In this document: piece after piece, positions 16,493 to 40,066 of the stretch
Layout: every line of letters starts with the position of its first letter
How positions within the stretch are numbered: the stretch's first letter is position 1
NCBI GenBank assembly: GCA_934168245.1
Contig: CAKPMY010000001.1
Coordinates: forward strand, 68,761 to 132,760
Direction of reading: 5' to 3'
Origin: an uncultured Bacilli bacterium
Lineage (GTDB): Bacteria > Bacillota_I > Bacilli_A > RF39 > UBA660
Length of the DNA stretch: 64,000 nucleotides
Position numbers and translations under genes: made by a program
Notes under the pieces: model-generated
What the model was told of the DNA's origin: nothing
Seen by the model: the letters and a program-made list of their open reading frames with translations, nothing else
Databases searched by the model: none

Positions 16493-19289
<2,797 letters not shown>

Positions 19290-21211: not shown

Positions 21212-21850
21212 TTATAAAGCCACTCTTAATTTTTCTAAAATCTTACCTTCTTTTCTAGAAACTTGTACTTGACTAATACCAAGTTCTCTACTTGCTTCAC
21301 TCTGAGTCATATCTTCATAATATCTAGCAATTATTAAATTCTTCTCTTCGACAGACAATCTACTAATCTCACGTTTTAAATCTAAAATTTCCGGACTAGT
21401 TTCCTTATCATATGAAGCAACAGAATTATAAAACTCTGGAAGTTCTTCATCCACACTATAATCTAAACTTCTAACATCCAAAGCCGCAACTCTTGCTTCT
21501 TCTATTTTCTCCTCATCTATTTCCAAAAATAAAGAAAGCTCCGTAGTAGTTGGTTCTCTTCCCAACCTTTGACTCATCTGTTCACTAGCCTTTTCAATAC
21601 TTTGATTCAATTTAACTAAATCACTAGATATTTTAACTAATCCTGCTTCTCTAACATATTTACGTACTTCTCCTAATACATAGTAATAAGCATATGTCGA
21701 AAACTTCGTATTTAAACTACTATCAAAATTATGATATGCATTAATTAATCCAATCATTCCTACCTGATACAAATCATCTCTTTCAAAATACTTTGTATAT
21801 CTCTGAATAATACCATATACTAATCCCTCATAATTTAATAGTTCTTCCAT
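21212..21850 (-). CDS. sigF: Sporulation sigma factor, SigF-like (sigma-70 family, short N-terminus), 212 aa
   Basis: Region 2 (YQVGMIGLINAYHNFD), region 3 and region 4 HTH (EASRELGISQVQVSRKEGKILEKLR). Sits in the spoIIAC position between a spoIIAA-like gene and spoVA genes. Confidence 0.65.
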   Translation of the reverse strand: MEELLNYEGLVYGIIQRYTKYFERDDLYQVGMIGLINAYHNFDSSLNTKFSTYAYYYVLGEVRKYVREAGLVKISSDLVKLNQSIEKASEQMSQRLGREPTTTELSLFLEIDEEKIEEARVAALDVRSLDYSVDEELPEFYNSVASYDKETSPEILDLKREISRLSVEEKNLIIARYYEDMTQSEASRELGISQVQVSRKEGKILEKLRVAL

Positions 21851-21860
21851 ACTCTCCTTT

Positions 21861-22193
21861 CTAAATACTAAAACACTTTAATGCCTCAAACTCATCCTTT
21901 ACATAAAATAATCTTGATGAATCTCTTATTCCCTTAAATACATCACTAATTCCACATAAAACTACTTTTCCACAACTTAAAAATATTTCAACTAATTTTC
22001 TTTGGAAATCCCTAAAAATATTTTCATCGGTCTGTCTTACATGATTAAAATCAAATATAAAAAAATGCATTCCCTGCTTATAAAGTAAATAATCTATTTC
22101 TTCATCTAGTTTCTTAAATGTCTTATTAGTTAAATCACCTTCTAACTTAATTACTGTAAATCCTTTAACTACTCCAACATCCATTTCTAACAT
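21861..22193 (-). CDS. STAS-domain anti-sigma-factor antagonist, SpoIIAA-like, 110 aa
   Basis: VIKLEGDL...VVLCGISDVFKGI STAS pattern. 10-nt gap to sigF. The canonical DSSG phosphoserine motif is not recognisable. Confidence 0.55.
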   Translation of the reverse strand: MLEMDVGVVKGFTVIKLEGDLTNKTFKKLDEEIDYLLYKQGMHFFIFDFNHVRQTDENIFRDFQRKLVEIFLSCGKVVLCGISDVFKGIRDSSRLFYVKDEFEALKCFSI

Positions 22194-22288: not shown

Positions 22289-22302
22289 AAAAAGAAGAAA
22301 AG

Positions 22303-23037
22303 TTAATACCTTTTCTCCCACTCAATCAACTTAGCATGTACCACAAACTTCTCTCTCGTATCATAACAAGTAGCCAAAGTAAGTATTTTATCACTTGGTA
22401 CAATTTCTAATTCATCATATTTAACTAAACTTCTCTTCTTAATTAAATCGATAAAATTTAAAAACTCCTCATTACTATCATAACCAGTATATAAATAATC
22501 ATTAGTATTCGTAATTCTATAAATACTAAATATTTTAAATATATAATTATTATAAGGAGTAGAAATATAAACTAACTTCTCACTACCATCTTTATTAATT
22601 AAATCTCGTAAACTTCCAAACATAGTTCCATCTTCTCTACCATGTCCATAAATAATATTATTACTAACTAAATCATCTATATCATTTCTATAATCTGTAT
22701 ATATCCATCCTGCATAATTAAAAGACTTATCATATGAATGAGTTAAATAGTAAGAATTATCTTTATGTTTAACAACTGGAAAATTAACAGAAGTATCATC
22801 TACTTTTATCCAAGCCACTACTTCATTATTAATTTTAGCAAGTTCTGTGAAATCAACAGAAAGAAAAGTACTAATTGGATTAATCTCTATCCTAGTAACT
22901 TCTTGAACTAACTTAATACTCTCTTTAGTCTTCTTATTATCTTCATTCCAATTAACAATATAAAAAAAAGAAAAGAGCATAGCGCCTAAAGAAGATATTA
23001 ATAAAACTATTGGTATTAACATTTTCTTCATATACAT
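22303..23037 (-). CDS. srtB: Class B sortase
   Basis: N-terminal TM, NSYYLTH, IIYGHG (His) and TLATCYD (TLxTC catalytic Cys), ~244 aa as for SrtB-type enzymes. Confidence 0.7.
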   Translation of the reverse strand: MYMKKMLIPIVLLISSLGAMLFSFFYIVNWNEDNKKTKESIKLVQEVTRIEINPISTFLSVDFTELAKINNEVVAWIKVDDTSVNFPVVKHKDNSYYLTHSYDKSFNYAGWIYTDYRNDIDDLVSNNIIYGHGREDGTMFGSLRDLINKDGSEKLVYISTPYNNYIFKIFSIYRITNTNDYLYTGYDSNEEFLNFIDLIKKRSLVKYDELEIVPSDKILTLATCYDTREKFVVHAKLIEWEKRY

Positions 23038-23045
23038 GCTCCTTT

Positions 23046-24251
23046 CTACAAAACATCTATATTATCATCTGTATTATTATCTATATTAGTATCATCCTTA
23101 GTCTTATCTTCAACTAAAGTATTCTGTATATAACCATCATTAGGAATATAAGAATTATTTAGACTTTCATTCGAAGTAGAAACAATAACCGGCTCTTCTG
23201 TAATGCCACTAACAGTATTAACATTAGCCTGACTCATACTTGGAGTCACATTCGCCGCATTAGCCTTACCTTGACTCACTTTCAAAGTTTCATTACTATC
23301 TACATTCAAAGTCTTATTCTCCAAATTACTATTAATCTGATTTATATCTAAAGCCTCATTATTAAAATTATTAACTATATTATTAGTATTAACACTTCTC
23401 TCTCTTCTTTTCTTTTCATACTTCTTTTTATCTCTAAGTACAAAGAATAATACTAACAATAATATTACAAAAACAAGTACTAAACTTAAATATAAAATCT
23501 TCTCATCTTTTCCTAACTTCTTCGTAACAGGTGTACTTTCTAAAACTTCAGGACTATATTCAACTCTAGTCCCACGTACTAGCAATCTATGTGTGTTTAT
23601 CGCATATGGTGTACAAGTAACTAGTGTTACATAATCTTCTCCTTCCTGAAGTTTTAAAGCCTCTATATCTGATGGTTCTACAACAAGTACTTGATCAACT
23701 TTATAAGCAAATACTTGATCTAAAATATAGACATAAAACATATCTCCATTTTGGAGTTGATTCAAATCAGTGAATAGTCTTGCTGAAGGCAATCCAGAAT
23801 GAGCCGATAACACTGCATGTGTTGTATCTCCTCCTACTGGAAAAGAACTACCTTCAACATGACCAACACCTTTTTGTAATACTTCATCACTTGTACCATG
23901 ATAGATAGGTATCTTAACATCTATCTTTGGTATTTGTAAATATCCCATCATTCCATTATCCCTAACATTTAAAATATTTAGGTATTCTTGAGACGTTGAT
24001 TGTTCTGGATTAGTAAAAGCATCAACAATATTAGAACCAGATATTCTACTATTATAAAGTCTAGCCTCATCAATCATTTCTTTATTCTTATTACTAGTAT
24101 TTGAAGATATATCACTAGAATAAGCTGTAATTACTTCAACTGCCTGATTAGAATTAATATAATTAATAACAACAGGATATAACATTATAGATAAACCTAT
24201 TAAAATACATATTGAAAATATAATAACAGGTATCTTTTTCTTTATATTCAA
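23046..24251 (-). CDS. srtC: Class C (pilus-polymerising) sortase with an unusual ~125-aa N/S/T-rich C-terminal cytoplasmic tail
   Basis: HAVLSAHSGL (His), TLVTCTPYAINTHRLLVRG (TLxTC plus Arg) and a C-terminal TM followed by a KKKYEKKRRER stop-transfer. The C-terminus then continues as a long low-complexity tail. Confidence 0.8.
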   Translation of the reverse strand: MNIKKKIPVIIFSICILIGLSIMLYPVVINYINSNQAVEVITAYSSDISSNTSNKNKEMIDEARLYNSRISGSNIVDAFTNPEQSTSQEYLNILNVRDNGMMGYLQIPKIDVKIPIYHGTSDEVLQKGVGHVEGSSFPVGGDTTHAVLSAHSGLPSARLFTDLNQLQNGDMFYVYILDQVFAYKVDQVLVVEPSDIEALKLQEGEDYVTLVTCTPYAINTHRLLVRGTRVEYSPEVLESTPVTKKLGKDEKILYLSLVLVFVILLLVLFFVLRDKKKYEKKRRERSVNTNNIVNNFNNEALDINQINSNLENKTLNVDSNETLKVSQGKANAANVTPSMSQANVNTVSGITEEPVIVSTSNESLNNSYIPNDGYIQNTLVEDKTKDDTNIDNNTDDNIDVL

Positions 24252-24252
24252 A

Positions 24253-25755
24253 TTATTCAGTTATTTCTTCTTTTTTATTACGATAAACAATAATAGCAAT
24301 AGCTGACGCTGCGATTACTAATAAACCAATGAAACTAAATAAAGAAGTACCCATACCACCAGTAAATGGTAATGTACCAGTTTCATATGCTGCTATATCA
24401 ACTCTATAATAACCAGTAACTGTACCTTCCGTAGCACCTGTTATTTTAACCTTTATAGGAACCGCATCTTTTGGTAATCCATATCCAGCAGCAGTAGAAG
24501 TTTGTTTTAAATAATATGTACCAGATTTAACACCAGCATAACTACCTCTACCATTAGTATCAGTAGTAATATCTCCTACTTTAGTACTTAATGCTGCATC
24601 AGAGTAAACCTCAAATTTAACATTAGATAACTTCTTAGAATTATCACTATTAGAATAGATAAATAATTCAATACCATATGTAAATGCTGATACATTAACT
24701 GCTGAAGTTGTAGTAGTAAGTGTACCATATGGATCATTTGCATATGTTAATACTGCACTATTTAAGTTACCTGCATCTCCTAATGTAGCACTACTATTAA
24801 GTTTAGCCTTATATTGAACTGTAACAGTAGTAGCATCAATATAACTAGTATTAAATACTATAGTAATCTTTTGTCCAGTAATTGTAGCCGTAGCAACAGT
24901 ATTACCAGAAGAGTTTTTAAATGTACCATTACTATTAGTTAAAGTAGTTGTTCCATACTTAATAGTCATTGTACTAAGTGCTGATAATGTAATACCATTT
25001 CCAACTGTATCAGTAATAGTATAAACAGTATTAGTTGCATTAGTAGGATATTGAGGAACAGTACCAACTAAAATATAAGTAAACTCTTGTCCAAAAGAAT
25101 AATCTCCTTCAAAATAACCTTCTGAACCAACATACTTAGTAAGTGAAGCATTACTAACTTTAGCAACTATAGTAGAATTGTTAATCTCCCAAGTAGTACC
25201 ATTTGCAACTGGAATAACATTTCCAACCATAACAGCATAAACATTAGTAGTAACACTAGGTATTACTAAATAAGCACCTGCCGCAACAGTACCAGTTGCT
25301 GTACTACCAGAAGTAGTTAAAGCCGTACTAGTAGTCGTATGATTCTTAACATATGTTGCATAAGCACTAACTAACTTATCTAATGTAGATTGAGTTCTAG
25401 TAGAACCAGATGTAATATCACCAGATGTCAAAGCATAATACTCATCTACTGTAAGATTTTTATAAGTACTACTAGAAGCAAGAAATGCCTTAAAACTAGT
25501 AGTAAATTCATAAGTCATTACATTAGAAGTAGCATTATAATAAACATCTAAAATCTTATATGCAACTAACCTATCAGCCGTCCCAACATTAGAAACAGTA
25601 ATAGTTCCTGTATTAGTTACTAATAAACTACTAGGATCGGTAGTACCTTTTTTACTACTATCAGTAGTAATTGTAACAGCATCTACATTTAAAAATATTC
25701 CAAATGTAAATATTGCAACCAATAACCCAATAATTTTCTTTTTCATTTTATACAT
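24253..25755 (-). CDS. LPXTG-type pilin subunit (sorting signal LPFTGG + TM + RNKKEE), paralogue 1, 500 aa
   Basis: Signal peptide, T/S/V-rich Ig-like sequence, E-box-like YYLKQTSTAAGYGLP and C-terminal TGTLPFTGGMGT...hydrophobic...YRNKKEE. Stop overlaps the srtC start. Confidence 0.7.
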   Translation of the reverse strand: MYKMKKKIIGLLVAIFTFGIFLNVDAVTITTDSSKKGTTDPSSLLVTNTGTITVSNVGTADRLVAYKILDVYYNATSNVMTYEFTTSFKAFLASSSTYKNLTVDEYYALTSGDITSGSTRTQSTLDKLVSAYATYVKNHTTTSTALTTSGSTATGTVAAGAYLVIPSVTTNVYAVMVGNVIPVANGTTWEINNSTIVAKVSNASLTKYVGSEGYFEGDYSFGQEFTYILVGTVPQYPTNATNTVYTITDTVGNGITLSALSTMTIKYGTTTLTNSNGTFKNSSGNTVATATITGQKITIVFNTSYIDATTVTVQYKAKLNSSATLGDAGNLNSAVLTYANDPYGTLTTTTSAVNVSAFTYGIELFIYSNSDNSKKLSNVKFEVYSDAALSTKVGDITTDTNGRGSYAGVKSGTYYLKQTSTAAGYGLPKDAVPIKVKITGATEGTVTGYYRVDIAAYETGTLPFTGGMGTSLFSFIGLLVIAASAIAIIVYRNKKEEITE

Positions 25756-25922
25756 CCTTTCTTTACTTTATATATAACAAATCATCCTAAAATATCACTC
25801 TTTACAAAGTTGAAGTATTTATAAAAAACTAATATTATAAAACAATTTTGTTACCCAAACTATTTAACCTACCTTATAATATATTTTAAACGTAAATGTA
25901 AAATTTTTCAATACAAACCACC

Positions 25923-25951
25923 TAAAAAAGACCTTCTTTTTAAGAAAGTCT
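25923..25951 (-). terminator. Terminator-like hairpin at the 3' end of pilin paralogue 2
   Basis: AGACCTTCTT-TTT-AAGAAAGTCT (10-bp stem, one mismatch) overlapping the stop codon, followed by a U6 run on the minus strand. Confidence 0.4.
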
Positions 25952-27436
25952 CTTATTCTTATTTTTCCCTCTATACAAACTAAATATCATAAAAGATGTA
26001 ATTATTACAACTAAACCTACCAAAGTATAAATAATTGTTCCAAGTCCTCCAGTAAATGGCAAAGTAGCAACCTTTATTGTTGGTATTTCTACTTTATAAT
26101 ATCCATCTATTGTTCCATCTACTGATCCATTTATTTTTACACTCATGCTTACTGTAGTTGCTAAACCATATCCTGTTGCTGTCTTAGTATTTTTTAAATA
26201 ATATGTACCAGCAGCCACACCTCTTAAAGTACCAACGCCATCACTACCTGTAGTTATAGTTCCAACTTTACGAGTTAGTCCTGAATCAGAATAAACATCA
26301 AACGTAACTCCAGATAACAATGTCGCCATATTATCTCTATCATAAACCAATAATTCAATACCATACGTATATGCTCCTACACTAACAGCCGTAGTCGTAG
26401 TTGTTCCTGTATAATATGGATCATTAGAATATGTCAAAGTCGCACTATTTAAGTTACCAAGCTCACCTAAAACAGCCCCAGTATTAAAGTTAGCCTTATA
26501 CTCAACTGTAATAGTACTATTAGTAATATAATTAGTATAAAAAGTAATTACTAAATTATTACCCGTAATACTAGCCGAACCAACAGTATTATCTGAAGAA
26601 TCTTTAAAAATACCATTATTATTAGTTAATGTAACACTTCCATCTCTAATACTAATATTATTAACTCCTGCAAAAGTTAATCCTGATCCAAGTGTATCTT
26701 TAATTGTATAAACAGTATTAGTAGCATTAGTAGGATATCTAGGAACAGTAGCAACTAAATAATAAGAAATATCATCCACAAGATAATAGTCTCTTTCAAT
26801 ATCTCCAATAGAACCAATTGACTTCGTAATAGAAGGTTCTGCTACTTTCGGTACAATAAAGGCATTACTCAAAAACCATTCACCAATATTATTAGGTTCA
26901 AATACAACATTCGCAACCATAACTGAATATATTTTTGCTGTAGCATTTGGTAATATCAAATAAGCCCCACTATATACGGGAGTAACAATATCAAGATATT
27001 CATCACTCACGATAGAATTAGTTTTTATATAAGTAGTATAAGCACTCATTAATTTATCTAACGTAGAATTTGTAACTGTAGAACCAGATGTAATATCACC
27101 AGATGTCAAATTAAAATAATCACCAACAGTTAAATTTTTATATGTAGAATTACTTGTTAAAAACTTCTTAAAATTACTAGTAAATTCATAAGTTATAACA
27201 TTACTAGTAGAATTATAAAAAGCATCTAATATCTTATACAAAGAAAAAGTATCATTACCAATATTAGTAGGATCTACATCTACACTTCCTCTAGAAGTTA
27301 TCAAATAACTATTCGTATCAACTGTACCTTTAGTATTAGAATCAACGGTAATATTAACTGCCTTTACATTGATAAACATACAAAAAACGACTAAAATAAT
27401 TACTCCAAATATCTTCTTCATACTACATCCTCTCAT
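25940..27436 (-). CDS. LPXTG-type pilin subunit (LPFTGG), paralogue 2 (most divergent), 498 aa
   Basis: Same architecture: signal peptide, conserved YKILDAFYNSTSNVITYEFT block, E-box YYLKNTKTATGYGL, ATLPFTGGLGT + TM + RGKNKNKR. Confidence 0.7.
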   Translation of the reverse strand: MRGCSMKKIFGVIILVVFCMFINVKAVNITVDSNTKGTVDTNSYLITSRGSVDVDPTNIGNDTFSLYKILDAFYNSTSNVITYEFTSNFKKFLTSNSTYKNLTVGDYFNLTSGDITSGSTVTNSTLDKLMSAYTTYIKTNSIVSDEYLDIVTPVYSGAYLILPNATAKIYSVMVANVVFEPNNIGEWFLSNAFIVPKVAEPSITKSIGSIGDIERDYYLVDDISYYLVATVPRYPTNATNTVYTIKDTLGSGLTFAGVNNISIRDGSVTLTNNNGIFKDSSDNTVGSASITGNNLVITFYTNYITNSTITVEYKANFNTGAVLGELGNLNSATLTYSNDPYYTGTTTTTAVSVGAYTYGIELLVYDRDNMATLLSGVTFDVYSDSGLTRKVGTITTGSDGVGTLRGVAAGTYYLKNTKTATGYGLATTVSMSVKINGSVDGTIDGYYKVEIPTIKVATLPFTGGLGTIIYTLVGLVVIITSFMIFSLYRGKNKNKRLS

Positions 27437-27472
27437 ACTATAATATCTATTACAATTTTACAAAGAAAAGCA

Positions 27473-27501
27473 TAAAAAAACAAGCCTTAACTTAGGCTTG
27501 T
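27473..27501 (-). terminator. Rho-independent terminator at the 3' end of pilin paralogue 3
   Basis: Perfect 8-bp stem ACAAGCCT / AGGCTTGT (loop TAACTT) overlapping the last codons, followed by U7 on the minus strand. Confidence 0.55.
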
Positions 27502-28991
27502 TCTTGCTCTTTTTTTCTATTATATAAAACGAATAGTAAAATTGCACTAACTACAGTAATTAAACCAATCATTGTATATAAAACTGTACCAATACTACCA
27601 GTAAATGGTAATGTTCCTGATTCAAACGCAGATACTTCTGCTATATAATAACCTTCAGTTTTACCTTCAGTAGAACCTTCGATTTTTACTTTAACAGGAA
27701 CTGCATCTCTTGGTAAATTATAACCAGGTGCAGTTGAAACTTGTTTTAAATAATAAGTACCTTCAGCAACACCAGGTAAAAGTGCTTTACCCTCAGAATC
27801 AGTAGTTACTTCACCAATTTTATTAGTTAATGATGAATCTGAATAAATTTCAAATTTAACACCAGATAATACTATACTATGATCTTTATCTGCATAAATT
27901 AATACTTCAATACCATAAGTAAATGCTGATGCATTAACTGCTGAAGTAGAATTAGTACCAGTTCCATATGGATCATTTGAATATGTCAATACAGCACTAT
28001 TTAAGTTTCCTGCTGAACCAACTGTAGCATTATTATTTAATTTTGCCTTATATTCAATTGTTACTGTAGTACTTAAAACATAATTAGTATCAAATACTAT
28101 AGTAAGTTTTTGTCCATTAACTGTAATAGTTGCTACTGTATTACCTGCAGCATTTTTAATTACACCATTAGAATTAGTTAATGTTGTATTACCATCTTTT
28201 ACAATTATAGTAGAAATACTTGATAATGTAATAGCATCACTAACTGTATCTACAATAGTATAAGTCTTATTAGTAGCATTAGTAGGATATTGAGGAACAG
28301 TACCAACTAAGAAGTATGAGAATTCTTCTCCAATTGAATAGTTACCATCAACATGTCCAATTGTACCAATTGACTTTGTAACTGAAGCAGTACTGATTTT
28401 TGCTTTTATTGTTACATCACTAATATTCCATTCATTACCATTAGCAACTGGAATAACATTTCCAACCATTACTGCATAAACACTAATTGTAGATTTAGGA
28501 ATAATTAAATAAGCACCTGCCTCAACAACAGCACCTGTTGCTCCTTCACTAGCAGTATAAGCCAAATCAGTTCCAGCAACTGCATGAGTTTTTACATAAG
28601 CAGCATATAAACTAACTAACTTATCTAATGTAGATTGAGTTCTAGTAGAACCAGATGTAATATCACCAGATGTTAAATTATAATATTGATCAACTGTAAG
28701 ATTTTTATAATCTGTAGTAGTAGCCAAGAATGCTTTAAAATCACTAGTAAACTCATAAGTAAATACATTAGTAGATGCATTATAGAATGTATCTAAAATC
28801 TTATAAGCAACTAAAGAATCAGTTGTTGGAGCATTAGTAATATTAATAGCACCTTGACTAGTTACTAATGCACTATTTGTATCAATAGTACCTTTTTTAC
28901 TTGTATCAGTCGTTATTGTTTCTGCATTAACATTTAGTACAAGTCCAAATGTAAATATAGCAACTAACAACCCAATAATTTTCTTATTCAT
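27492..28991 (-). CDS. LPXTG-type pilin subunit (LPFTGS), paralogue 3, 499 aa
   Basis: Near-identical signal peptide to paralogue 1 (KKIIGLLVAIFTFG), same conserved blocks, E-box YYLKQVSTAPGYNLP, SGTLPFTGSIGT + TM + NRKKEQ. Confidence 0.7.
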   Translation of the reverse strand: MNKKIIGLLVAIFTFGLVLNVNAETITTDTSKKGTIDTNSALVTSQGAINITNAPTTDSLVAYKILDTFYNASTNVFTYEFTSDFKAFLATTTDYKNLTVDQYYNLTSGDITSGSTRTQSTLDKLVSLYAAYVKTHAVAGTDLAYTASEGATGAVVEAGAYLIIPKSTISVYAVMVGNVIPVANGNEWNISDVTIKAKISTASVTKSIGTIGHVDGNYSIGEEFSYFLVGTVPQYPTNATNKTYTIVDTVSDAITLSSISTIIVKDGNTTLTNSNGVIKNAAGNTVATITVNGQKLTIVFDTNYVLSTTVTIEYKAKLNNNATVGSAGNLNSAVLTYSNDPYGTGTNSTSAVNASAFTYGIEVLIYADKDHSIVLSGVKFEIYSDSSLTNKIGEVTTDSEGKALLPGVAEGTYYLKQVSTAPGYNLPRDAVPVKVKIEGSTEGKTEGYYIAEVSAFESGTLPFTGSIGTVLYTMIGLITVVSAILLFVLYNRKKEQEQA

Positions 28992-29130
28992 AATATTCGT
29001 CCTTTCTTTTCTTTATATATAACAAACCCAATCCAAATATCATTAAACTATCTACGAGCTGCAGTTACTCATATTCACCTAAACAACATCTGAATAAAGA
29101 TTTTGCTACCTAAATTAATTAATTATTTTC

Positions 29131-29946
29131 TTATCCTTCACTAGAAGTATTTTGATTATCTTGATTCATATTCTGATTATTAATCTGATTATTGTCTTGA
29201 TTATCTACCTGATTAATAACCGAATTATCACTCTGAGTAGTAACTTGACTATCTATTTGATTTACATTCATACTACCCGCATCAGTCTTCTTATTATTCT
29301 TCTTCTTTTTGATAATAAGTACAATCGCCACAATAAATATAATTAAAGCAATTCCAAATATCGCAACATATAGATATATAGTATCAGCTGTATATGGAGG
29401 ATCTACTCCGCCATCTCCTGGATTAACATTCAAAGATTTAGCCTCAGTCTTAGCAAAAACACTTAAATCATACATATAAACATCTTGAATTTCGTTAAAA
29501 TTAGGTAAACTGACTAATAATGGTCCAGATGAATATTCATAATCCTCAGTCTTCTTACTATCAACTCTAATTAAATACAATCCCACTTTTAAATCTTTAA
29601 AAGTAAATTCTCCATTACTATCAGTCTTCGTACTAGCAATATAATTAATATTATTATCACTTATATACTTATTAAGTTTACTAGTATAATCATCCCATTC
29701 AAAACTCTCTAATGTATTAACATCTTCTGTATATCCTACAAACTCATCAACATAAGTATATTTAGCCAACTCACTCATATCAGCAATCTTGTATAAATAA
29801 ACATTAGTATCTGTAATATTAACATCACTGTAATTATACTTACCTATTATACTAGTCAATCTATTAACTTCAATTTCTGCATTTACATTAGTAATAGTAA
29901 AGAAGAATGCTACTATAAAAACAACTAATAATTTAATTTTTTTCAT
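29131..29946 (-). CDS. Small CnaB-like surface protein with C-terminal TM anchor and Q/N-rich cytoplasmic tail, 271 aa (candidate minor/basal pilus component)
   Basis: Signal peptide, TDSNGEFTFKDLKVGLYLIRVDSKK (CnaB/prealbumin-like motif) and a TM helix preceded by VNPGDGGVDPPYTADT (no canonical LPXTG). KKKKNNKK stop-transfer is followed by a ~50-aa Q/N-rich tail. Start abuts the stop of the upstream gene. Confidence 0.45.
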   Translation of the reverse strand: MKKIKLLVVFIVAFFFTITNVNAEIEVNRLTSIIGKYNYSDVNITDTNVYLYKIADMSELAKYTYVDEFVGYTEDVNTLESFEWDDYTSKLNKYISDNNINYIASTKTDSNGEFTFKDLKVGLYLIRVDSKKTEDYEYSSGPLLVSLPNFNEIQDVYMYDLSVFAKTEAKSLNVNPGDGGVDPPYTADTIYLYVAIFGIALIIFIVAIVLIIKKKKNNKKTDAGSMNVNQIDSQVTTQSDNSVINQVDNQDNNQINNQNMNQDNQNTSSEG

Positions 29947-31992
29947 CTACATACCCTCCATCTTTCTTCTCATGTATAATACATATCCACAAGATGCACA
30001 AACTATAACAATAAATCCACCTACTATATAAGGTATATTACCAACACCACCGGTATTAGGTAACATATCTATTTTATCGTTTACAAGATCAACTGTAACT
30101 ACACCTGTTGTATTCGTAATCGTTTGATTTTTAAATGTAATATTACCTGAAGTATCTACAACTACGGTATACGTATCTGGCAATAGTACATATCCTGTTT
30201 GAACTCTAGTTTGTTTTAAATAATATGTAGTACCAGGAATTAAATCAGTAAACTCTAATCCCTCTGCAACTTTAGAAGCATCACTCAAGTTAGAATTACT
30301 ATATAAACTAAATTTACCATCTGATAATACTGTTCCATCATCACTATCTGTCAAATTAACTTTTAATGCCACATTTGCAACTTTAAATGCCACTGAAACT
30401 TTATAATCTTGTGATGTATCTAAGTAATAATAATTATCTGCTAAAGCACCAGTAATTTCTACTGAATTTACATAATCAGCAACTATTTTATCTGTTGCGG
30501 TAAATGTTGCATTAAGAGTAACACTTGCTCCCGCCGCTATTGTACCAATTTTAACTATTTGATCACTAAGTAATGTATAAGATGTACTAGTTGTAAATGT
30601 TGCTCCTGTAAGATATTCTTGTACCATTACATCTTTAATCGGTATACTGGCTGTATTTGTAACTGTAATTTGGAATGGAACTACTTCTCCCTTTTTATAA
30701 CTTGCTTTTTTATTTGGTATTGTAATTGTAATCGTTGGAGAGAAATATCCAGAGAATAACATCCATTCACCATAAATAACTACATCTTCTTCAGGCATTT
30801 CAAATGTCTTACTCTTATACCAACCTAAGAATTTATAACCTGTTGCTACTGGATCATCCGCAACTGTTATTGTTTCTCCTGGTGCATAAGCCACTGTCGC
30901 TGGTAATAGACTATCAGCATTACTAGGCATAACTGAACCTTGGAACTGATAAGAAACATTATATTTAATTAATTCAAACTTACCAGTAATTGAAACATTC
31001 TTACTAGGCATCTGGAATATTCCATCAGTTAGACTAACATCTGTTGATGTCCAACCTAAGAACCTATATCCATTAATAACATCTCCGGCCTTTAATGAAT
31101 CAACAATTACATCATCCCCAGCCCCATAAGATTTAGGAGTTGGTGAAATAAATCCATCTGGAACATTACCAGATACAGAATACGTAACTGTATATTTTGT
31201 TTTTGCTGTAAAACTACCCGTAAATACTACATTGCTAGAAGGCATTGTAAACGAATTATTAGTAACTGTAACATTACTAGTAGACCACCCAGAGAAAGTA
31301 TAACCTGCTACTGTCGGATTAGCCTCAACACCAACTGTTGTACCAGCACTATATGAGTTAGTTGTAGGAACAGGTGCTCCATCAGGAACTGTACCTGTAT
31401 ATTTATAAGTTACTGTATATAAAGTAGCCTCTTCATCACCCATAAATACATGTACTGTATTTGATTTAAAAGAGAAATCATTTTCTCTAGCAAAAGCCGT
31501 ATTATAAAAATCTAGTCTTTTTCCATTTGGCAAATCAGGAGTAGTCGTAACAACACCTACAGTCAACTTACAACCTGCCTGTAAATTCTTTACTTTAAAC
31601 GAAACTGTCCTTGTTGCACTATCATATACCAATCCAGCACTATCTCCAACGACATAACCAGGACAACTAGTACCATCACTACGTTTAACTGCCCCTATCG
31701 TACCATCACTCGTTGTAACAAATTCTTTAAATGTTAATCCATCAGGTAACTTATCTTCAACATATATATAATCACTACTAACATTAGCAGTAACAGTATC
31801 ACTAGAAGAAACTGCTTTAGCATCCTTACCATCATAAATAACATCAATATAATAAGTTAAGTCGCTATTAGGTGCTACTCTGGCTCCAGATTCCAAAGGA
31901 ACTGCAAAAGATCTATTGATAATAACAATCAATAAAGCAACAAATAAAGACAAAGAAAGACCAATAATAATATTTCGTTTCTTGTTCTTCAT
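29947..31992 (-). CDS. LPNTG-anchored surface protein with three Listeria-Bacteroides (Flg_new) repeats and a C-terminal CnaB/E-box domain (candidate tip or ancillary pilin/adhesin), 681 aa
   Basis: Signal peptide. Repeats with AGYTFSGW, NGYRFLGW and TGYKFLGWY. E-box-like YYLKQTRVQTGY. MLPNTGGVGN + TM + RRK at the C-terminus. Confidence 0.65.
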   Translation of the reverse strand: MKNKKRNIIIGLSLSLFVALLIVIINRSFAVPLESGARVAPNSDLTYYIDVIYDGKDAKAVSSSDTVTANVSSDYIYVEDKLPDGLTFKEFVTTSDGTIGAVKRSDGTSCPGYVVGDSAGLVYDSATRTVSFKVKNLQAGCKLTVGVVTTTPDLPNGKRLDFYNTAFARENDFSFKSNTVHVFMGDEEATLYTVTYKYTGTVPDGAPVPTTNSYSAGTTVGVEANPTVAGYTFSGWSTSNVTVTNNSFTMPSSNVVFTGSFTAKTKYTVTYSVSGNVPDGFISPTPKSYGAGDDVIVDSLKAGDVINGYRFLGWTSTDVSLTDGIFQMPSKNVSITGKFELIKYNVSYQFQGSVMPSNADSLLPATVAYAPGETITVADDPVATGYKFLGWYKSKTFEMPEEDVVIYGEWMLFSGYFSPTITITIPNKKASYKKGEVVPFQITVTNTASIPIKDVMVQEYLTGATFTTSTSYTLLSDQIVKIGTIAAGASVTLNATFTATDKIVADYVNSVEITGALADNYYYLDTSQDYKVSVAFKVANVALKVNLTDSDDGTVLSDGKFSLYSNSNLSDASKVAEGLEFTDLIPGTTYYLKQTRVQTGYVLLPDTYTVVVDTSGNITFKNQTITNTTGVVTVDLVNDKIDMLPNTGGVGNIPYIVGGFIVIVCASCGYVLYMRRKMEGM

Positions 31993-32114
31993 ATTGCATC
32001 TCCTTCCTTTATACTATAAACACCTACTATACAAATTAATTATAGCAAAGTAACATTTCAAATTCAAGATAGCAATTATAAAAACCATCTAATTAGTAAT
32101 AAAAGTATATAAAC

Positions 32115-35100
32115 CTATGCAAGAATAAGAACATAAGGATTAGTAGAGGTACCATCACCATAATCAACCTTCATACCAGGTTTAATTGATACAACTGGCC
32201 TAAAATCATTAGAAAAACTAGTCAAACAATACCGAACAAAGGTATTCATATTTACATTTGGACCGTATACTGCAATTCGTGAATTATCAGTTGTTGTACT
32301 TAGAGGTGACATAGTCCAAAAATTTAAAGTACCTAAATATGAAAACGAATAGTATCTACCGGCTAATAAAACCTCATCATAAGTAAGTAATCCAACTGGA
32401 TATTTTAAACCATTTGTTGTAGTAAACTTATCATAGCTGTTATTGCACTTAAGTAACGACGATGCACCATTAAAAAATAAATCATAACCAAAGAAACGTA
32501 CATCGCTAGAGGCAGCAATTTTTCCAATAATTGTATTTTCACTTACCAAAGATGTAGTTATAATTTCACGATTATTACAAAATGTTGCATCTTCCAAATA
32601 ATCTGTATAACTTGTCATATTATTCTTATACCATGTTTCGATCGTAGTTTTCGCATTAGAATCATTAATATTATTAAAAACCTTGGCTTCTTTAAAGGCT
32701 TGTAAATTATAAGCATTAATATCATAATAGGAAATAGTCTCATTTTTATAGTAAATTAAATATTTAACGGAAGCACACTTTGTATTTTCACTAAAACAAG
32801 TGTAGTTATAGCCCTTTGTCAATGTTTCAAATTCATTATATAAATTAGTCACTGACAGACTAATCGTATCTTGCAAAACATATTGTGTACCATCCCATTG
32901 TTCCCAGTTACCAAAAATAATTTTCTTATTTGCAGCCTGTGTTTTTAAATCCGAAGCCAATGAGCCATCATTAAGAGAAACGTATGTCAGATTACCTTCA
33001 TTATAAGAAATAACATAATATATATTAGAACAAGAAACATCAGAAGAATCTGGACACACATAATAATCCGCCAGAGTTTCATATTTTTCTGCCCATACTA
33101 TTTTTTGACCAATGTAACTTGCCACCTTATAATTTCCACTACTATAAGTTGCAGAAGTAGAAGCATTCATATATATTGGAACATAATAAGCCTCAGTAGA
33201 AGTCCCTCCAACTATATAAACAGGTTCACTGCAACTACTAGAACCATCTAAACAAGTATAATATTTTTTATATGAAGTACTCCAAGTATCCTGAGTAGCA
33301 TTATTAAGAACATAAGTACCATCAAAATTGTTACGTTGTAATGAAGAATAACTAGAAGTAAAATAGTATTTTCCAGTACCCATTGTTTGAGTCTTACTTA
33401 TATTAATAGTACTAGTAGTTAATCCCAATACATCATACCATTTAGGCATAGTATATGTTTTTACTTTTTCAAGACTTCCATACATATAACCAACACTAGC
33501 AATAGAACCAGGATCAGTATTAAAAGCACCTTTTCCTATACTACAAGCAGTATTAGTACACTGATTATTACTATTAGGAAGACCATTATATAATATCTTT
33601 ACACCACCAGTATCGGTAGTTCTAACTATTTTCCAACAAAATCCAGCAAACAACAAGTTATTATCATCAATAGAACCATGATAATAATGAATTGGATAAT
33701 TATCATTTGCAGTTGAAGAATAAGTATAAACTCCTTTATTTGTAGTCGTAGTACTAGTAAGATCTAAATTAGTATCCAAAGTAGCCTTACCTGCCACAAT
33801 ATCATATAAAGTAGCAGCCTCATAAATAGTTCCATCCACAGTTTTATTCATAGAAGCCTTAGCCCAAGTTGCTTTCAAAGTAACCGCATAAGGTGGCATA
33901 ACAAAATTAGTACCCTTACGTTCAACATTAGTATCATCTATTTGCCAGCCCTTAAACTCATAACCAGCACACACTGGAACAGTACTAGAAATATCAACTA
34001 CACTAAATGGATTATGATAAATAGTATATGGCAAATGATTTATTGTACAATCAGAAGGAGCATTTCCATCATAAACAACAGGATAGGCATTAGCAAGAGC
34101 CGGAGTGTCAGTACTAATAATGGTCTCAGAAACATCACCAATCTTATAATTGATTGCTACCTTTCTAAAAAGTGGATATACACCAACTGCACCTTCCGAA
34201 TACTTATCTTTTAATTTTAAATCAAAACTCATTGTAACAGGAAATCCTGTAGCAAGTCGATTATCTGAACCTTCATTACCAAAAAACCATATCATTCTTG
34301 CACCAATAATATTGCCTGAAGTACCAAATGTTACATTTGGTTTGATATTATCAATAGAAAAAACATCAGTATTTATCAAAGTATCAATACTAAATAAATC
34401 ATAATCTACATATCGCACCATATAATCTATGTTTGAAATAATTCTATAAAAAGAAGAAAGATCAGTTCCAACATATTGAACATCACTCATTTCTTTTAAA
34501 ATATCACTTTTGTTTCCACCAACATTATACTGAACAGCAAAAAAGTTTTTTATTTCTGGATAGTTTTTTCTGATATTATTATACGTTTCCTTTTCTTTTC
34601 CCATATCTCGAGCCGGATCACCATCAGTAATTAATACAACCCAAATATCATTGTCACCATAATCAGTAGAAGTTTCAAGGAGTTCATTTAAAGCATCTAA
34701 TGCCGAATAGTAACTAAGCCCAGTACTCCCATCTAAATTACCATATGATGTTGAGTTAAGTTCAGTAAGATCAGTACCAAAATCACTTGCTATCTCGGCT
34801 ACTGAATTAAATTTTATAACTGCTAAAGAGTTATCACTATTTTTTGAAAGAAAACTTCGTCCAAATGCACGAATACGGTTTTTCATTGTAGTAATATCTA
34901 TAGTATCATCCACTAACAATACTAAATCTATAGGTTTAATATCTTTTGCCATAGCAACACTATCAAGTTTAAAAGTTACTCGTACTCTGCCCTTAGAAAC
35001 CCATTCTGCATTTACATCAATATTCCAACTTCCAGGATCATCGTCTTCAGATGAAAGTTTTGTTGATTGATATGTGATGTTTTTAACTTCCACATCTGCC

Positions 35101-35207
35101 GCAAATGAATTAGTAAGTGTAAATACAAAAACAAAAATTAAAATTAAAGATAATAAAAATAATAAAGACTTCTTTTTAGTAAAAAAACTAAAGACTTTCT
35201 TTAACAT
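32115..35207 (-). CDS. Giant secreted vWA-domain protein with a Flg_new repeat and C-rich C-terminal region; no sortase signal; 1030 aa
   Basis: Signal peptide. vWA-like DLVLLVDDTIDIT...VVLITDGDP. CAGYEFKGWQ repeat. Long Y/T/S/C-rich C-terminal 550 aa ending ...KVDYGDGTSTNPYVLILA with no TM or LPXTG. Confidence 0.55.
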   Translation of the reverse strand: MLKKVFSFFTKKKSLLFLLSLILIFVFVFTLTNSFAADVEVKNITYQSTKLSSEDDDPGSWNIDVNAEWVSKGRVRVTFKLDSVAMAKDIKPIDLVLLVDDTIDITTMKNRIRAFGRSFLSKNSDNSLAVIKFNSVAEIASDFGTDLTELNSTSYGNLDGSTGLSYYSALDALNELLETSTDYGDNDIWVVLITDGDPARDMGKEKETYNNIRKNYPEIKNFFAVQYNVGGNKSDILKEMSDVQYVGTDLSSFYRIISNIDYMVRYVDYDLFSIDTLINTDVFSIDNIKPNVTFGTSGNIIGARMIWFFGNEGSDNRLATGFPVTMSFDLKLKDKYSEGAVGVYPLFRKVAINYKIGDVSETIISTDTPALANAYPVVYDGNAPSDCTINHLPYTIYHNPFSVVDISSTVPVCAGYEFKGWQIDDTNVERKGTNFVMPPYAVTLKATWAKASMNKTVDGTIYEAATLYDIVAGKATLDTNLDLTSTTTTNKGVYTYSSTANDNYPIHYYHGSIDDNNLLFAGFCWKIVRTTDTGGVKILYNGLPNSNNQCTNTACSIGKGAFNTDPGSIASVGYMYGSLEKVKTYTMPKWYDVLGLTTSTINISKTQTMGTGKYYFTSSYSSLQRNNFDGTYVLNNATQDTWSTSYKKYYTCLDGSSSCSEPVYIVGGTSTEAYYVPIYMNASTSATYSSGNYKVASYIGQKIVWAEKYETLADYYVCPDSSDVSCSNIYYVISYNEGNLTYVSLNDGSLASDLKTQAANKKIIFGNWEQWDGTQYVLQDTISLSVTNLYNEFETLTKGYNYTCFSENTKCASVKYLIYYKNETISYYDINAYNLQAFKEAKVFNNINDSNAKTTIETWYKNNMTSYTDYLEDATFCNNREIITTSLVSENTIIGKIAASSDVRFFGYDLFFNGASSLLKCNNSYDKFTTTNGLKYPVGLLTYDEVLLAGRYYSFSYLGTLNFWTMSPLSTTTDNSRIAVYGPNVNMNTFVRYCLTSFSNDFRPVVSIKPGMKVDYGDGTSTNPYVLILA

Positions 35208-35369
35208 ATTTTTCTCCTGTCTGTCTGTCTAAGGATAGATTTTTTCTGTTTATTTGCCAACATATTTATCACCATCTTTACTATTCTTAACCATAATAAT
35301 TGTACTATATAGTATAGTTTTTTTCAAGTATCAGAAAAATCAAAAAAGACATCATCCTAAGACGACATC

Positions 35370-35921
35370 TTATATAAATAAATACTCTGGTTTTTTATAA
35401 TTCAAAGAATAATTTTTATCATCTCTATATTCTTCAACTAAGACTACTTTCTCTTCTTCTAAACTCTTCTTAACATCAATTATTCTTTGATTCCTAGAAC
35501 CTCTAAAATAAATATCTAAACTCTTCTCTTCCAAAACAAATTTACCATCTACTAATATATCAATATAATCTAATAATTTTCTTTGTTTTGGATTATTAAT
35601 AATAGTCTCATATGTAAAGCCTGTATAACACCAAACACTAAGTCCCATCTCTTTCGCAGCCTTACATATTTCTATACAAGCGTCACTTTGACACATTGGA
35701 TCTCCTCCAGATAAAGTTATTCCATCTTGTCCCTCTATATTTTTTAACTCTTCAATAACTTCTTTTATATCTACTAGAAATCCTCCATTAAAATCATGTG
35801 TCCCAGGGTTATGACAGCCTTTACAGTTATGTGGACACCCTTGAGTCCACACAACTGTCCTTATTCCTTCACCATCTACTATTGAATCTGGTTGTAAATC
35901 AGCGGCTAATCTAATTTCCAT
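35370..35921 (-). CDS. nrdG: Anaerobic ribonucleoside-triphosphate reductase activating protein (radical SAM)
   Basis: CPHNCKGCHNP radical-SAM cluster motif of NrdG, ~180 aa, immediately downstream of nrdD. Confidence 0.85.
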   Translation of the reverse strand: MEIRLAADLQPDSIVDGEGIRTVVWTQGCPHNCKGCHNPGTHDFNGGFLVDIKEVIEELKNIEGQDGITLSGGDPMCQSDACIEICKAAKEMGLSVWCYTGFTYETIINNPKQRKLLDYIDILVDGKFVLEEKSLDIYFRGSRNQRIIDVKKSLEEEKVVLVEEYRDDKNYSLNYKKPEYLFI

Positions 35922-36124
35922 TCTTGCATTCGTCTTTTAATAAGTCTTTTACTCCAGAATGTTTTACACGATCCCTTTCTTCTGCTCTTTTACCATTATT
36001 AAATCTTGAAACATCTCCTGCTAAATATCCTGTAACTCTTCTAATTCTTTCAAACTTTTCTCCTTCGCCAACTATTTTTTCCATAAATATTCCTCCTACT
36101 TCTTTTAATTAATTATTTATTTAT

Positions 36125-38440: not shown

Positions 38441-38736
38441 AAATTAACCTCCACATAAGTAACATTCTTTCCTTCATTTTAGAAACTAATTATAAAAAAA
38501 TCAATACAAAAAATGACACTTTTTTTACCATTTTTTTCAATACGTTGATATATAAAGAAAAGCTCCAAAAACTTTTTTTGTTCGATTTACGACAATTGAC
38601 ATTTTTATACATTTAAGAAAATTGCAACAGCACATTTTTTATTTTTTTGCAAGTGTTTTTCAACCAATTTCCTTATTTTTCAACAAAACAGTATTTCCAT
38701 AAAAGAAAAAAATTAAAAAAATGTAAAAATCATTTT

Positions 38737-39749: not shown

Positions 39750-40066
39750 AACTTCTCAACATCCCCATGACTATAATATAAGACTGGTTTATTTAATAAT
39801 TCAGCCCATTCAATCTGACTCTTAGTACTACTACCAATATAACCATCTTTATCAATAACAATAACTATATCACTACGACATACCTTCATTTTAGCAGCCG
39901 TATCTAATATCTTCTTAGTCCCAACCCCACATTCTGGTACTTCTCCAGATTGATTATAAACAGACGGAGTAAACACTAAATATCCTTTCAAAGCCAATTT
40001 CTCTTCAACCGCTAAAAAGACATCCCTAAATTTAGTACTTCCAATCAATAAAACAACACTATACAT
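39746..40066 (-). CDS. Hypothetical small protein (106 aa) embedded between nrdD2 and nrdG2; possibly a Rossmann-like nucleoside-deoxyribosyltransferase-like fold
   Basis: ORF tightly coupled on both sides: 1 nt after the nrdD2 stop, and its stop overlaps the nrdG2 start. The VVLLIGS...DIVIVIDKDGYIGSST pattern suggests a small alpha/beta fold. Family assignment is a guess. Confidence 0.4.
   Translation of the reverse strand: MYSVVLLIGSTKFRDVFLAVEEKLALKGYLVFTPSVYNQSGEVPECGVGTKKILDTAAKMKVCRSDIVIVIDKDGYIGSSTKSQIEWAELLNKPVLYYSHGDVEKL

Follow-up and report, generated by a model that had tools for sequence, protein, structure and literature searches.

A probable SpaA-type sortase pilus locus linked to a conserved adhesin gene pair in an uncultured gut Bacilli bacterium

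The stretch of DNA analysed here, 64,000 nucleotides (nt) from an uncultured Bacilli bacterium (contig CAKPMY010000001.1) and referred to as the window, contains a cluster of genes for sortase-assembled surface proteins. According to the listing of open reading frames (ORFs), eight contiguous minus-strand genes occupy positions 22303-35207, precisely where an earlier reading of the bare sequence (the original prediction) had placed them. They encode five proteins with sorting signals, a class C sortase, a class B sortase and a giant protein without a cell-wall anchor. When all ORFs of the window were scanned with a regular expression for a C-terminal ‘P.T’ motif followed by a hydrophobic stretch and a basic tail, five proteins were retrieved, every one of them encoded in the cluster. 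The cluster probably represents a SpaA-type sortase pilus locus on the chromosome of an uncultured gut Bacilli bacterium with low GC content and spore-former-like character, joined to a pair of adhesin genes that is conserved in the lineage. The genes and their main motifs are given below from upstream to downstream (aa, amino acids; vWA, von Willebrand factor A); related loci are designated by L numbers.

32115-35207, minus strand: giant adhesin, 1030 aa, with the C-terminal end ...GDGTSTNPYVLILA
35100-35108, minus strand: SFA (residues 34-36) of the giant, at the end of its N-terminal hydrophobic helix
34896-34910, minus strand: DDTID, a degenerate metal-ion-dependent adhesion site (MIDAS) motif in the vWA domain of the giant (~residues 90-265)
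29947-31992, minus strand: candidate tip adhesin, 681 aa, with LPNTG at residues 644-648 (nt 30049-30063)
31903-31911, minus strand: SFA of the 681-aa protein, at the end of its signal peptide
29131-29946, minus strand: putative one-domain base pilin, 271 aa
29437-29457, minus strand: FAKTEAK of the base pilin, including Lys166 in YDLSVFAK
29383-29400, minus strand: sorting signal PPYTAD of the base pilin, residues 183-188
27492-28991, minus strand: shaft pilin paralogue A, 499 aa, with LPFTG at residues 461-465 (nt 27597-27611)
28392-28409, minus strand: pilin-motif Lys198 of pilin A, in W188...IKAK
25940-27436, minus strand: shaft pilin paralogue B, 498 aa, with LPFTG at nt 26048-26062
26840-26857, minus strand: Lys197 of pilin B, in IVPK
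24253-25755, minus strand: shaft pilin paralogue C, 500 aa, with LPFTG at nt 24358-24372
25153-25170, minus strand: Lys199 of pilin C, in IVAK
23046-24251, minus strand: class C sortase, 401 aa, with TLVTC at nt 23613-23627
22303-23037, minus strand: class B sortase, 244 aa, with TLATC at residues 220-224 (nt 22366-22380)

The three LPFTG proteins (498-500 aa) are pilin paralogues, as originally proposed: each contains GramPos_pilinBB (PF16569) and SpaA (PF17802) domains above the Pfam cut-offs and an above-cut-off match to the isopeptide-domain model TIGR04226, and each ends in LPFTG, a membrane helix and a basic tail. The copies are 49-67% identical, evenly over all domains, pilin B being the most divergent one (49% identical to A) and pilin C being 64% identical to A. 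The AlphaFold model of pilin A is a three-domain beta-structure with a mean predicted local distance difference test (pLDDT) score of 77, and its best Foldseek matches are Clostridium perfringens CppA (E=3e-25), Streptococcus pyogenes T6, Streptococcus sanguinis PilA, Bacillus cereus BcpA and Corynebacterium diphtheriae SpaD. In a profile of 15 family members, the three window paralogues among them, the segment W188...K198 aligns with the CppA pilin motif WNYDVTINPK; W188 and K198 are invariant, and the motif is degenerate in the shaft pilins, where it reads I-[KV]-[AP]-K. Equally invariant in this family are K206, which aligns with the first-strand lysine of the second domain (D2), D248 and N329/N331/N339. 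D2 itself matches TIGR04226 at 54.7 bits. An isopeptide bond is probably absent from the C-terminal CnaB domain (D3) of the shaft, because the positions of the canonical isopeptide Lys and E-box Glu are occupied, as judged from the alignment, by the invariant residues Y366 and Q417. CnaA/CnaB folds and a pilin-motif lysine, which the original prediction had singled out for checking, are represented by the shaft-pilin matches of the model and by K198.

A loop in the first domain (D1), LTSGDITSGSTRTxSTLD, is almost invariant in all shaft pilins, paralogues and orthologues alike. It comprises residues ~109-120 of pilin A (window 28632-28667) and the equivalent positions of pilins B and C, and it is modelled at a pLDDT <50. 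Its high conservation despite the low-confidence model suggests a functional site, e.g., for modification, sortase docking or ligand binding.

The 271-aa protein had been described as a small CnaB-like anchored protein, of which the anchoring, by PPYTAD, stands; this signal is not of the LPXTG type, and the domain is of pilin D1 type rather than clearly CnaB. Its SpaA/CnaB and anchor matches are weak, and homologues are annotated as GramPos_pilinD1 or SpaA. The family profile gives matches to D1, the N-terminal domain, of SpaD (E=3e-07), Spa2 and SpaA, and K166, the only invariant lysine of the mature protein in an alignment of 21 homologues, falls on the YPK lysine of ‘WNYNVVAYPKN’ and ‘WLYDVHVYPKN’. 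Because the profile matches D1 and K166 falls on this lysine, the protein appears to be a D1-only pilin with the pilin-motif lysine just ahead of its own sorting signal; such a layout, lysine and then signal, is what a fibre-terminating base pilin needs. In the same 21 homologues, down to 33% identity, the signal is invariant in P-x-T-x-D (P184, T186 and D188), occurs in the variants VPYTAD, VPNTYD, VPKTID, VPQTSD and LPNTYD, and is followed by a membrane helix and basic residues. In the window, PPYTAD is succeeded by a membrane-spanning helix, then by KKKK and finally by an N/Q-rich cytoplasmic tail of 50 aa (residues ~222-271, window 29131-29282); the corresponding tails in one sister species end in E[DE]TI.

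Both sortases can be classified. The class C enzyme reaches 283.5 bits with NF033745 (cut-off 160), is related to pneumococcal SrtC (3g66) at E=1e-60 and possesses, besides the catalytic His and Arg, a membrane helix at either terminus. Its cytoplasmic tail (~145 aa; residues ~255-401, window 23046-23480) is of low complexity and Asn/Gln-rich; the tails of relatives are similarly long, unconserved in sequence and acidic-hydrophobic at their ends (IDVL, IEIL, IDLL, IDVI, TETI). The class B enzyme has the catalytic TLxTC, His and Arg residues and exceeds the cut-off of TIGR03064 by a narrow margin (160.2 vs 153.75 bits), its orthologue in L016 reaching 189.5 bits. One class C and one class B sortase, rather than housekeeping classes only, had been expected from the outset, and both models agree. 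The original analogy of the class B enzyme with the FCT/PI islands did not hold up: a class C polymerase is present, and the similarity of SrtB is highest to the anchoring SrtBs of Bacillus anthracis (139 bits), Staphylococcus aureus (118) and Clostridioides difficile (96), and much lower to Spy0129 (60), a pilus polymerase.

The genes present and their linkage, the sortase classes, the pilin folds and the conservation of lysines and signals are results of computation; from these, we infer which sortase cleaves what, the order of the subunits and any physical link between giant and fibre. Assembly could proceed in the following manner: The class C sortase would cleave the LPNTG of the 681-aa adhesin and join it to Lys198 of a shaft pilin. 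The same enzyme would polymerise the shaft pilins A, B and C head-to-tail via LPFT-Lys bonds and would end the fibre by transfer of its last shaft pilin onto Lys166 in the one-domain base pilin. The class B sortase would then cleave the base pilin at PPYT/AD and link the whole fibre to peptidoglycan. In textbook pili, this anchoring step is done by a housekeeping sortase. With a class C sortase and shaft pilins that have the fold, the lysine and LPFTG, the originally proposed sortase-assembled pilus locus is upheld, and we consider it probable that the pilus is built along these lines.

The joint polymerisation of the three shaft pilins has to be weighed against their use one at a time, for which the transcription signals in and around the cluster are relevant:

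35346-35371, minus strand: terminator-like hairpin after nrdG, bordering the cluster upstream
35299-35327, minus strand: promoter-like site TTGAAA-17-TACAAT before the giant gene, directly past the nrdG hairpin (consensus match only)
32039-32067, minus strand: promoter-like site with extended -10, TTGAAT-17-TG-TATAAT, within the 122 bp that separate the giant and 681-aa genes (consensus match only)
27476-27505, minus strand: terminator-like hairpin with a 12-bp stem and a T-run, overlapping the stop codon of pilin A
25921-25951, minus strand: hairpin followed by a T-run where pilin B ends, GAGACTTTCTT...AAGAAGGTCTTTTTT; L005 has this element too
22293-22319, minus strand: terminator-like hairpin at the end of the cluster

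Terminator-like hairpins flank the cluster on both sides (35371-35346 and 22319-22293), and those after pilins A and B, together with promoter-like sites in the intergenic gaps, would fit three alternative, separately expressed shaft variants that serve antigenic or functional switching and are not co-polymerised. A strong hairpin is found at the same spot after the pilin-A orthologue in L005, L006, L027 and L085. The even divergence of the paralogues would also fit, as would the copy number at the syntenic locus, which is zero in L095, one in L006, L055, L085 and L091, two in L027, L101 and L112, and three in the window, L005, L088, L093 and L142; three paralogues, initially regarded as unusual, are one of several copy numbers in related species. 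On the other hand, invertible promoters or recombination cassettes between the pilin genes were sought, and only paralogous coding repeats and chance short matches were obtained. The seeming hypervariability of pilin alleles (~110 separate ‘90% clusters’ at ~70% identity) proved to be a clustering artefact, the pairwise median being 96% identity. Moreover, the lysine and LPFTG are common to all three pilins, which could thus be mixed by a single sortase. Separate expression is hence a serious proposal that we judge unlikely, and a shaft into which A, B and C are co-polymerised is preferred. An apparent ‘MPVTKS’ sorting motif in pilin-B orthologues was a further artefact, in this case of the regular expression; the true LP[FY]TG lies a few residues downstream.

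The 681-aa protein, the first sortase substrate encoded in the operon, consists of a signal peptide, a conserved N-terminal domain, two Flg_new/Flg_new_2 repeats, DUF11 and a stalk domain of SpaA fold ahead of LPNTG, in agreement with its first description as an LPNTG protein with Flg_new repeats. Its N-terminal 560 aa are 49-68% identical among 12 relatives; a search for relatives in the PDB yielded only chance matches. Its role is best seen in L095, a syntenic locus with sigF and spoVA downstream, in which the order is giant, 681 (LPNTG), base pilin (PPYTGD), SrtC and SrtB, with zero shaft pilins. Retention of SrtC is sensible there only if the enzyme joins the 681-aa protein to the base-pilin lysine, which fits direct joining of tip and base. 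Because L095 keeps the 681-aa protein with its LPNTG, the base pilin and SrtC without a shaft, the 681-aa protein is likely the tip.

The C-termini of 681-like proteins vary with context: they carry LPNTG where SpaA pilins are present, no signal beside BsaA modules (see below), and NPITRT, xPITGx or NPITLD elsewhere. This variety (LPNTG, IPNTID, NPITRT, xPITGx or none), also in the absence of pilins, lends some credit to a view in which two structures are made: the LPFTG pilins and SrtC would form a tip-less pilus, and the 681-aa protein, alone or with the giant, would be wall-anchored independently by a housekeeping sortase or SrtB. The protein could then be a free-standing, wall-anchored adhesin and no tip at all. 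The difference between its LPNTG and the LPFTG of the pilins, the promoter-like site before its gene and the terminator-like hairpin after pilin A point in the same direction. Yet the SpaA-fold stalk and LPNTG occur on 681-like proteins only in SpaA-type loci, the gene order of tip, base, shaft and sortases is conserved, and the SrtC of L095 has no possible substrates other than the 681-aa protein and the base pilin. Two independent structures are thus rather improbable in our estimation, and a single fibre with the 681-aa protein at its tip is retained.

Anchoring of this fibre is assigned to SrtB. The base pilin carries the sole non-LPXTG sorting signal of the 64-kb window, and this non-standard signal seems matched to the neighbouring class B sortase. 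In an independent metagenome sample, SrtB was located in the same locus as an xPxTxD pilin in 12 of 14 informative SpaA-type loci, and it accompanies such a pilin also in L005, L006, L027, L055, L083 and L085/86; the adjacency of SrtC and SrtB is kept down to ~33% base-pilin identity (L083). L016 is syntenic (nrdG ... sigF) but has neither pilins nor SrtC; its 681-like adhesin ends in IPNTID and a membrane helix, and the class B sortase (189.5 bits), encoded next to the adhesin, is the only sortase. A precedent is FimB, the base pilin of the C. perfringens necrotic-enteritis pilus, which has a sortase-B-type signal (PMC8088525). From the linkage of SrtB to xPxTxD pilins, the pair in L016 and the FimB precedent, we infer that SrtB anchors the base pilin and, through it, presumably the fibre.

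Several points speak against this assignment. The NCBIfam model of SrtB-target signals, TIGR03063, gave no match to the base pilin at E<=0.01; two SpaA-type relatives, L118 and L163, have an xPxTx[DS] base pilin and no SrtB within the sequence seen; sorting signals do not typically have a 50-aa tail past the basic residues, although the tail is shorter in some orthologues; and the pairing of enzymes with substrates is derived wholly from adjacency and motifs. A housekeeping sortase elsewhere in the genome may be the anchoring enzyme. SrtB would then be unrelated to the pilus and act on a substrate encoded elsewhere, such as an Isd/NEAT-type haem-uptake protein, for which its proximity in sequence to the Isd-type enzymes of B. 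anthracis and S. aureus, the failed TIGR03063 match and the two loci without SrtB could be adduced. The conserved SrtC-SrtB adjacency, the singular signal of the base pilin and the L016 locus argue otherwise, and no NEAT or haem-uptake genes were detected in the 64-kb window. A class B sortase that merely neighbours the pilus genes is therefore doubtful, and SrtB is kept as the anchoring enzyme.

The giant protein, the product of the first gene in the cluster, is composed of an N-terminal helix, the vWA domain, an InlB-B/Flg_new_2 repeat (residues 414-451), a beta-rich middle part and a putative C-terminal DUF6273-like domain. At the sequence level, only a sub-threshold VWA_2 match and the one Flg_new_2 repeat are detectable, and no PDB sequence relative of the protein or its C-terminal domain was retrieved even at E<=10. 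The vWA fold is confirmed by structure comparison, the nearest structural neighbours being the pilus tip adhesins SpaC (E=3e-14), PitA and Mfa5. A vWA protein of 1030 aa without a cell-wall anchor, as first described, is thus what the locus encodes: a C-terminal sorting signal is absent from the window copy and from all 15 aligned homologues (30-80% identity), which share a globular-domain end, ...RP[AVS][VI]S[LI]...G[DN]G[ST]xxxPY[VI], and an invariant S34-F35-A36. The SFA is common to the giant, the 681-aa protein and 681-like relatives, and is similar to [ST]FA[YA]F, found in the SipW-type signals that neighbouring BsaA proteins have at other loci.

The giant family is large, with 3747, 2330 and 721 clusters at 50% identity for E<=1e-3, E<=1e-10 and E<=1e-30, respectively, and with >573 genomic copies, often several per genome. 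Its hosts are uncultured gut ‘Bacilli’ metagenome-assembled genomes, ‘Mycoplasma sp. CAG:877’ and ‘uncultured Erysipelotrichaceae’. Most members are encoded far from any sortase and mostly away from pili. The window protein is found with identical sequence in 16-19 contigs. In relatives, the gene lies upstream or downstream of the pilus core or is missing upstream (L027, L085, L088). That the giant is the fibre tip pilin, in the manner of SpaC, RrgA, GBS104 or PitA, as the original prediction had implied, is highly improbable despite its structural neighbours, its first position in the cluster, which is usual for tips, and its linkage to the pilus core in many relatives, because covalent incorporation requires a sorting signal that neither the window copy nor the 15 homologues possess (all of the latter end in a conserved G-D-G-[ST]-x-x-x-P-Y-[VI]), while most of the family is remote from sortases, the gene is downstream of srtB or missing upstream in the three loci just named, and the family pairs with BsaA/SipW fibre loci devoid of SpaA pilins as well. 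The giant is exported and is not a sortase substrate.

As to its C-terminal domain, DUF6273 is described as a C-type-lectin-like domain, the C-terminal end of which is the variable region (VR) of proteins targeted by diversity-generating retroelements (DGRs) (PMC10743442, PMC11792537). DUF6273 (PF19789) was matched by 12 of 26 diverse C-termini of the giant family (190 residues; best E=1.4e-5), and not by the window copy. The lectin fold is thus read from weak Pfam matches of relatives and from the conserved position of the VR; the AlphaFold2 model of residues 839-1030 has a pLDDT <35, which tells against this part of our interpretation. The giant most likely acts as a co-expressed adhesin with two ligand-binding modules, the vWA domain and the putative C-type-lectin-like DUF6273. 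It may be tethered by its N-terminal helix or docked non-covalently on the 681-aa protein.

Complete DGR cassettes are present in related loci such as L034:3657-6256, L015:3015-5415 and L018:12655-15093, where a 497-aa reverse transcriptase (RT; IGxxxSQ, YMDD) is encoded between the giant and 681-like genes. The VR forms the 3' end of the giant gene just before GVRPxxSL and is repeated in a template region (TR) 300-430 bp downstream, which is followed by the RT. Mismatches between VR and TR fall on TR adenines in 20 of 22, 17 of 18 and 22 of 22 cases in these loci, and the VR has a GC content of 0.57-0.63 in loci of 0.29-0.33. Such cassettes were noted also in L119, L120, L125, L126, L128, L143 and L161, and additional RT-bearing loci were present in the metagenome sample. 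A DGR acting on the window giant gene was considered and rejected: no RT (best tblastn E=0.55) and no TR-like repeat were found there, and the VR-equivalent region is not GC-rich (0.28-0.35, like the rest of the gene). Rather than a tip pilin, the window giant is an adhesin that is not diversified itself but belongs to a family targeted by DGRs. In the literature, no paper was found that contains the three terms DGR, sortase and pilus together.

To avoid selection bias, the linkage of giant and 681-like genes was assessed by scanning metagenome contigs with an alignment of the N-terminal 560 residues of the 681-aa protein, not with the giant. A giant-family gene was adjacent in 50 of the 61 informative loci (82%), immediately upstream in 44 and downstream of srtB in six. 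Loci seeded with the giant are mixed; many giants are solitary, and ~17 lie beside a 681-like gene plus one of two modules: (i) SpaA pilins, SrtC and SrtB; (ii) BsaA-family (TIGR04090) proteins, SipW, an xPxT-anchored 214-aa protein and a small unclassified sortase. The giant and the 681-like protein form a conserved unit, of which the fibre or anchor is interchangeable.

The second module can be seen in L037:13273-18355, L034:6189-11328, L017:13-5591 and ~20 metagenome loci (e.g., L117, L119, L120 and L147). It comprises two BsaA-family SipW-dependent proteins, an archaeal-type SipW signal peptidase, the ~214-aa protein, which ends in xP[ND]Txx and a membrane helix, and a sortase of ~200 aa that fits no curated class (best class C, 80 bits vs a cut-off of 160). 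In the window, SipW, BsaA and further giant paralogues were searched for and none was found. In L040 (6466-11997), a single ORF of 1843 aa covers both members of the pair. It was considered as a ‘Rosetta-stone’ fusion of 681-like protein and giant and discarded as such: a sorting-signal-like NPLTK and two membrane helices lie between the halves, the giant half keeps its own N-terminal helix, and the ORF reads like two neighbouring genes joined in frame, either by a true fusion or through loss of a stop codon.

A more far-reaching picture can be drawn, which we regard as speculative and, taken as a whole, unlikely: the giant and the 681-aa protein would form a two-part adhesin, in which the former docks, without a covalent bond, on the conserved N-terminal domain of the latter; the lineage would mount this pair interchangeably on SpaA-type sortase pili, as here, on BsaA/SipW fibres or, via varied sorting signals, on the cell wall; a DGR would hyper-mutate the lectin head in some species; and class B sortases would have a new recognition motif dedicated to pilus anchoring, [PVL]P[YNQK]Tx[DS]. 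If all of this were true, pilus tip adhesins diversified by retroelements would have a Gram-positive counterpart in this system, which would also provide the first non-covalent subunit of a sortase pilus.

Regarding its genomic setting, the cluster is bounded upstream by nrdG/nrdD (35370-38440) and downstream by genes for a STAS protein, a SigF-like sigma factor and spoVAC/AD/AEb. As originally noted, no mobile-element genes are found at its borders, neither on the nrdG side nor on the side of the STAS-protein gene. In the relative L085, an IS91-family (Y2) transposase (L085:6621-7799) lies at the upstream border between nrdG and the 681-aa gene; it occupies the slot of the window giant gene, and the giant paralogue of L085 is located downstream of srtB, a layout that indicates rearrangement of the locus. 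The GC content of the cluster equals that of its flanks, and its GC skew is weaker, consistent with Thr/Ser/Asn-rich coding. A signature of horizontal transfer was rejected: GC is that of the flanks, the skew fits the coding content and the flanking genes are syntenic in relatives. The identical locus was found in several independent gut-metagenome contigs.

The downstream neighbourhood had been called the sporulation sigF locus, which is correct in that SigF-like sigma factor, STAS and spoVA genes are present; the sigma factor is divergent, though, and spoIIAB is missing. In this locus (21212-22193), the STAS protein matches SpoIIAA weakly (22.8 bits vs a cut-off of 114.75), the divergent gene of the SigB/F/G family begins 10 bp after it (SigF model, 163 bits vs a cut-off of 321), no gene for the anti-sigma kinase SpoIIAB lies between the two, and spoVAC, spoVAD and spoVAEb come next. 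Upstream, positions 35370-42196 hold two tandem pairs of anaerobic ribonucleotide reductase genes that are syntenic in relatives, the first encoding NrdD (771 aa) and NrdG (183 aa), the second an NrdD-like protein (709 aa), a 106-aa ORF and an NrdG-like protein (180 aa), with a dUTPase gene between the pairs. Further away, a 932-aa protein (16491-19289) has an N-terminal zinc ribbon, a membrane helix, a clostripain-family (Peptidase_C11) domain and a ~250-aa Asn-rich low-complexity region including a run of >20 Asn; Asn-rich expansions seem common in this genome. Near the sortase pilus locus, a second pilus or pseudopilus component, unrelated to the first, is suggested by a 405-aa protein (42990-44207) that has a prepilin-type N-terminal methylation motif (type IV pilin-like); its gene adjoins one for a Crp-family regulator, which is encoded on the opposite strand.

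Sortase pili are, to our knowledge, understood in detail in pathogens, but have hardly been surveyed in the uncultured Bacilli with reduced genomes that commonly inhabit mammalian guts. The pilus operon itself is an ordinary finding; the main interest lies in the SrtB motif and the modular adhesin pair. If our reading is correct, labour would be divided between a class C sortase that polymerises and a dedicated class B sortase that anchors via a new xPxTxD signal, and a sister species would have a minimal ‘tip-base’ version without a shaft. Evolution would have plugged a modular adhesin pair into two unrelated fibre systems, one partner being a retroelement-diversified lectin in some genomes, and the host- or glycan-binding specificity of these commensals would become directly testable. 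The coupling of a sortase to a BsaA/TasA-like fibre locus may deserve a study of its own.

Among known systems, the SpaA-type pili (C. diphtheriae SpaABC, C. perfringens Cpp/CppA and S. sanguinis PilABC) share with the window locus a class C sortase that adjoins its substrates, a three-domain shaft pilin with LPxTG signals and a D1-D2 junction lysine aligned to WxxxVxxYPK, and the logic of tip, shaft and base with a small base pilin that has its own lysine. They differ in the base pilin signal (LPxTG instead of xPxTxD) and rely on a housekeeping class A/E enzyme, whereas the window locus encodes a class B sortase; furthermore, the C-terminal CnaB domain of the window shaft is without the usual Lys and E-box Glu, and the candidate tip has Flg_new/DUF11 modules rather than vWA. 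In the streptococcal FCT/PI-2 islands (Spy0129, SrtG1, SipA and PitA), a sortase of class B fold is likewise found with pili, non-LPXTG signals (EVPTG, VTPTG) are used as in the window locus, and PitA, a vWA adhesin, ranks among the structures closest to the giant. In these islands, the class B enzyme is the polymerase; in the window, polymerisation falls to a class C enzyme, SrtB is only distantly related to Spy0129 (60 bits), no SipA/LepA gene is present and the vWA protein has no sorting signal. The Isd-type class B sortases (signals NPQTN in S. aureus, NPKTG in B. anthracis and [SP]PxTG in C. difficile) provide the best sequence matches to the window SrtB (139 and 118 bits) and are similarly encoded next to a substrate with a signal of the form xPxTx; the substrate in the window is, however, pilin-like and not a NEAT haem receptor. 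We know of no described class B sortase motif that corresponds to [PVL]P[YNQK]Tx[DS].

The necrotic-enteritis pilus locus of C. perfringens VR-10B (CnaA-FimA-FimB, signal peptidase and SrtB1) is similar in the sortase-B-type signal of its base pilin and in a class B sortase in or beside the locus (PMC8088525). It differs in the absence of a class C sortase, the class B enzyme being thought to polymerise, and in the presence of a SipA-like signal peptidase, which is absent from the window locus. DGR-diversified DUF6273/C-type-lectin proteins (phage tentaclins and Faecalibacterium prophage targets) resemble the giant family in the DUF6273 match of its C-terminal domain and in the arrangement of relatives, where the VR at the C-terminal end is followed by TR and RT, in accordance with the reported VR position (PMC10743442, PMC11792537). 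In contrast to phage tail proteins, the giants are chromosomally encoded cellular proteins of ~1000 aa with an N-terminal vWA domain, encoded beside genes for sortases or BsaA fibres, and the window copy is without RT, TR and a GC-rich VR. BsaA/TasA-type SipW-dependent fibres (C. perfringens BsaA) are related through at least 22 loci that join the giant and 681-like pair to a BsaA module; such genes are absent from the window, where the pair is joined to SpaA-type pilins instead. Taken together, the locus lacks the sorting signal of a vWA tip pilin and has, as far as tested, the features that define a SpaA-type sortase pilus cluster, from which, as a textbook system, it departs in a locus-encoded SrtB matched to a non-LPXTG base signal, a D3 domain without the isopeptide residues, a tip candidate with Flg_new/DUF11 modules and a linked partner with vWA and putative C-type-lectin-like domains.

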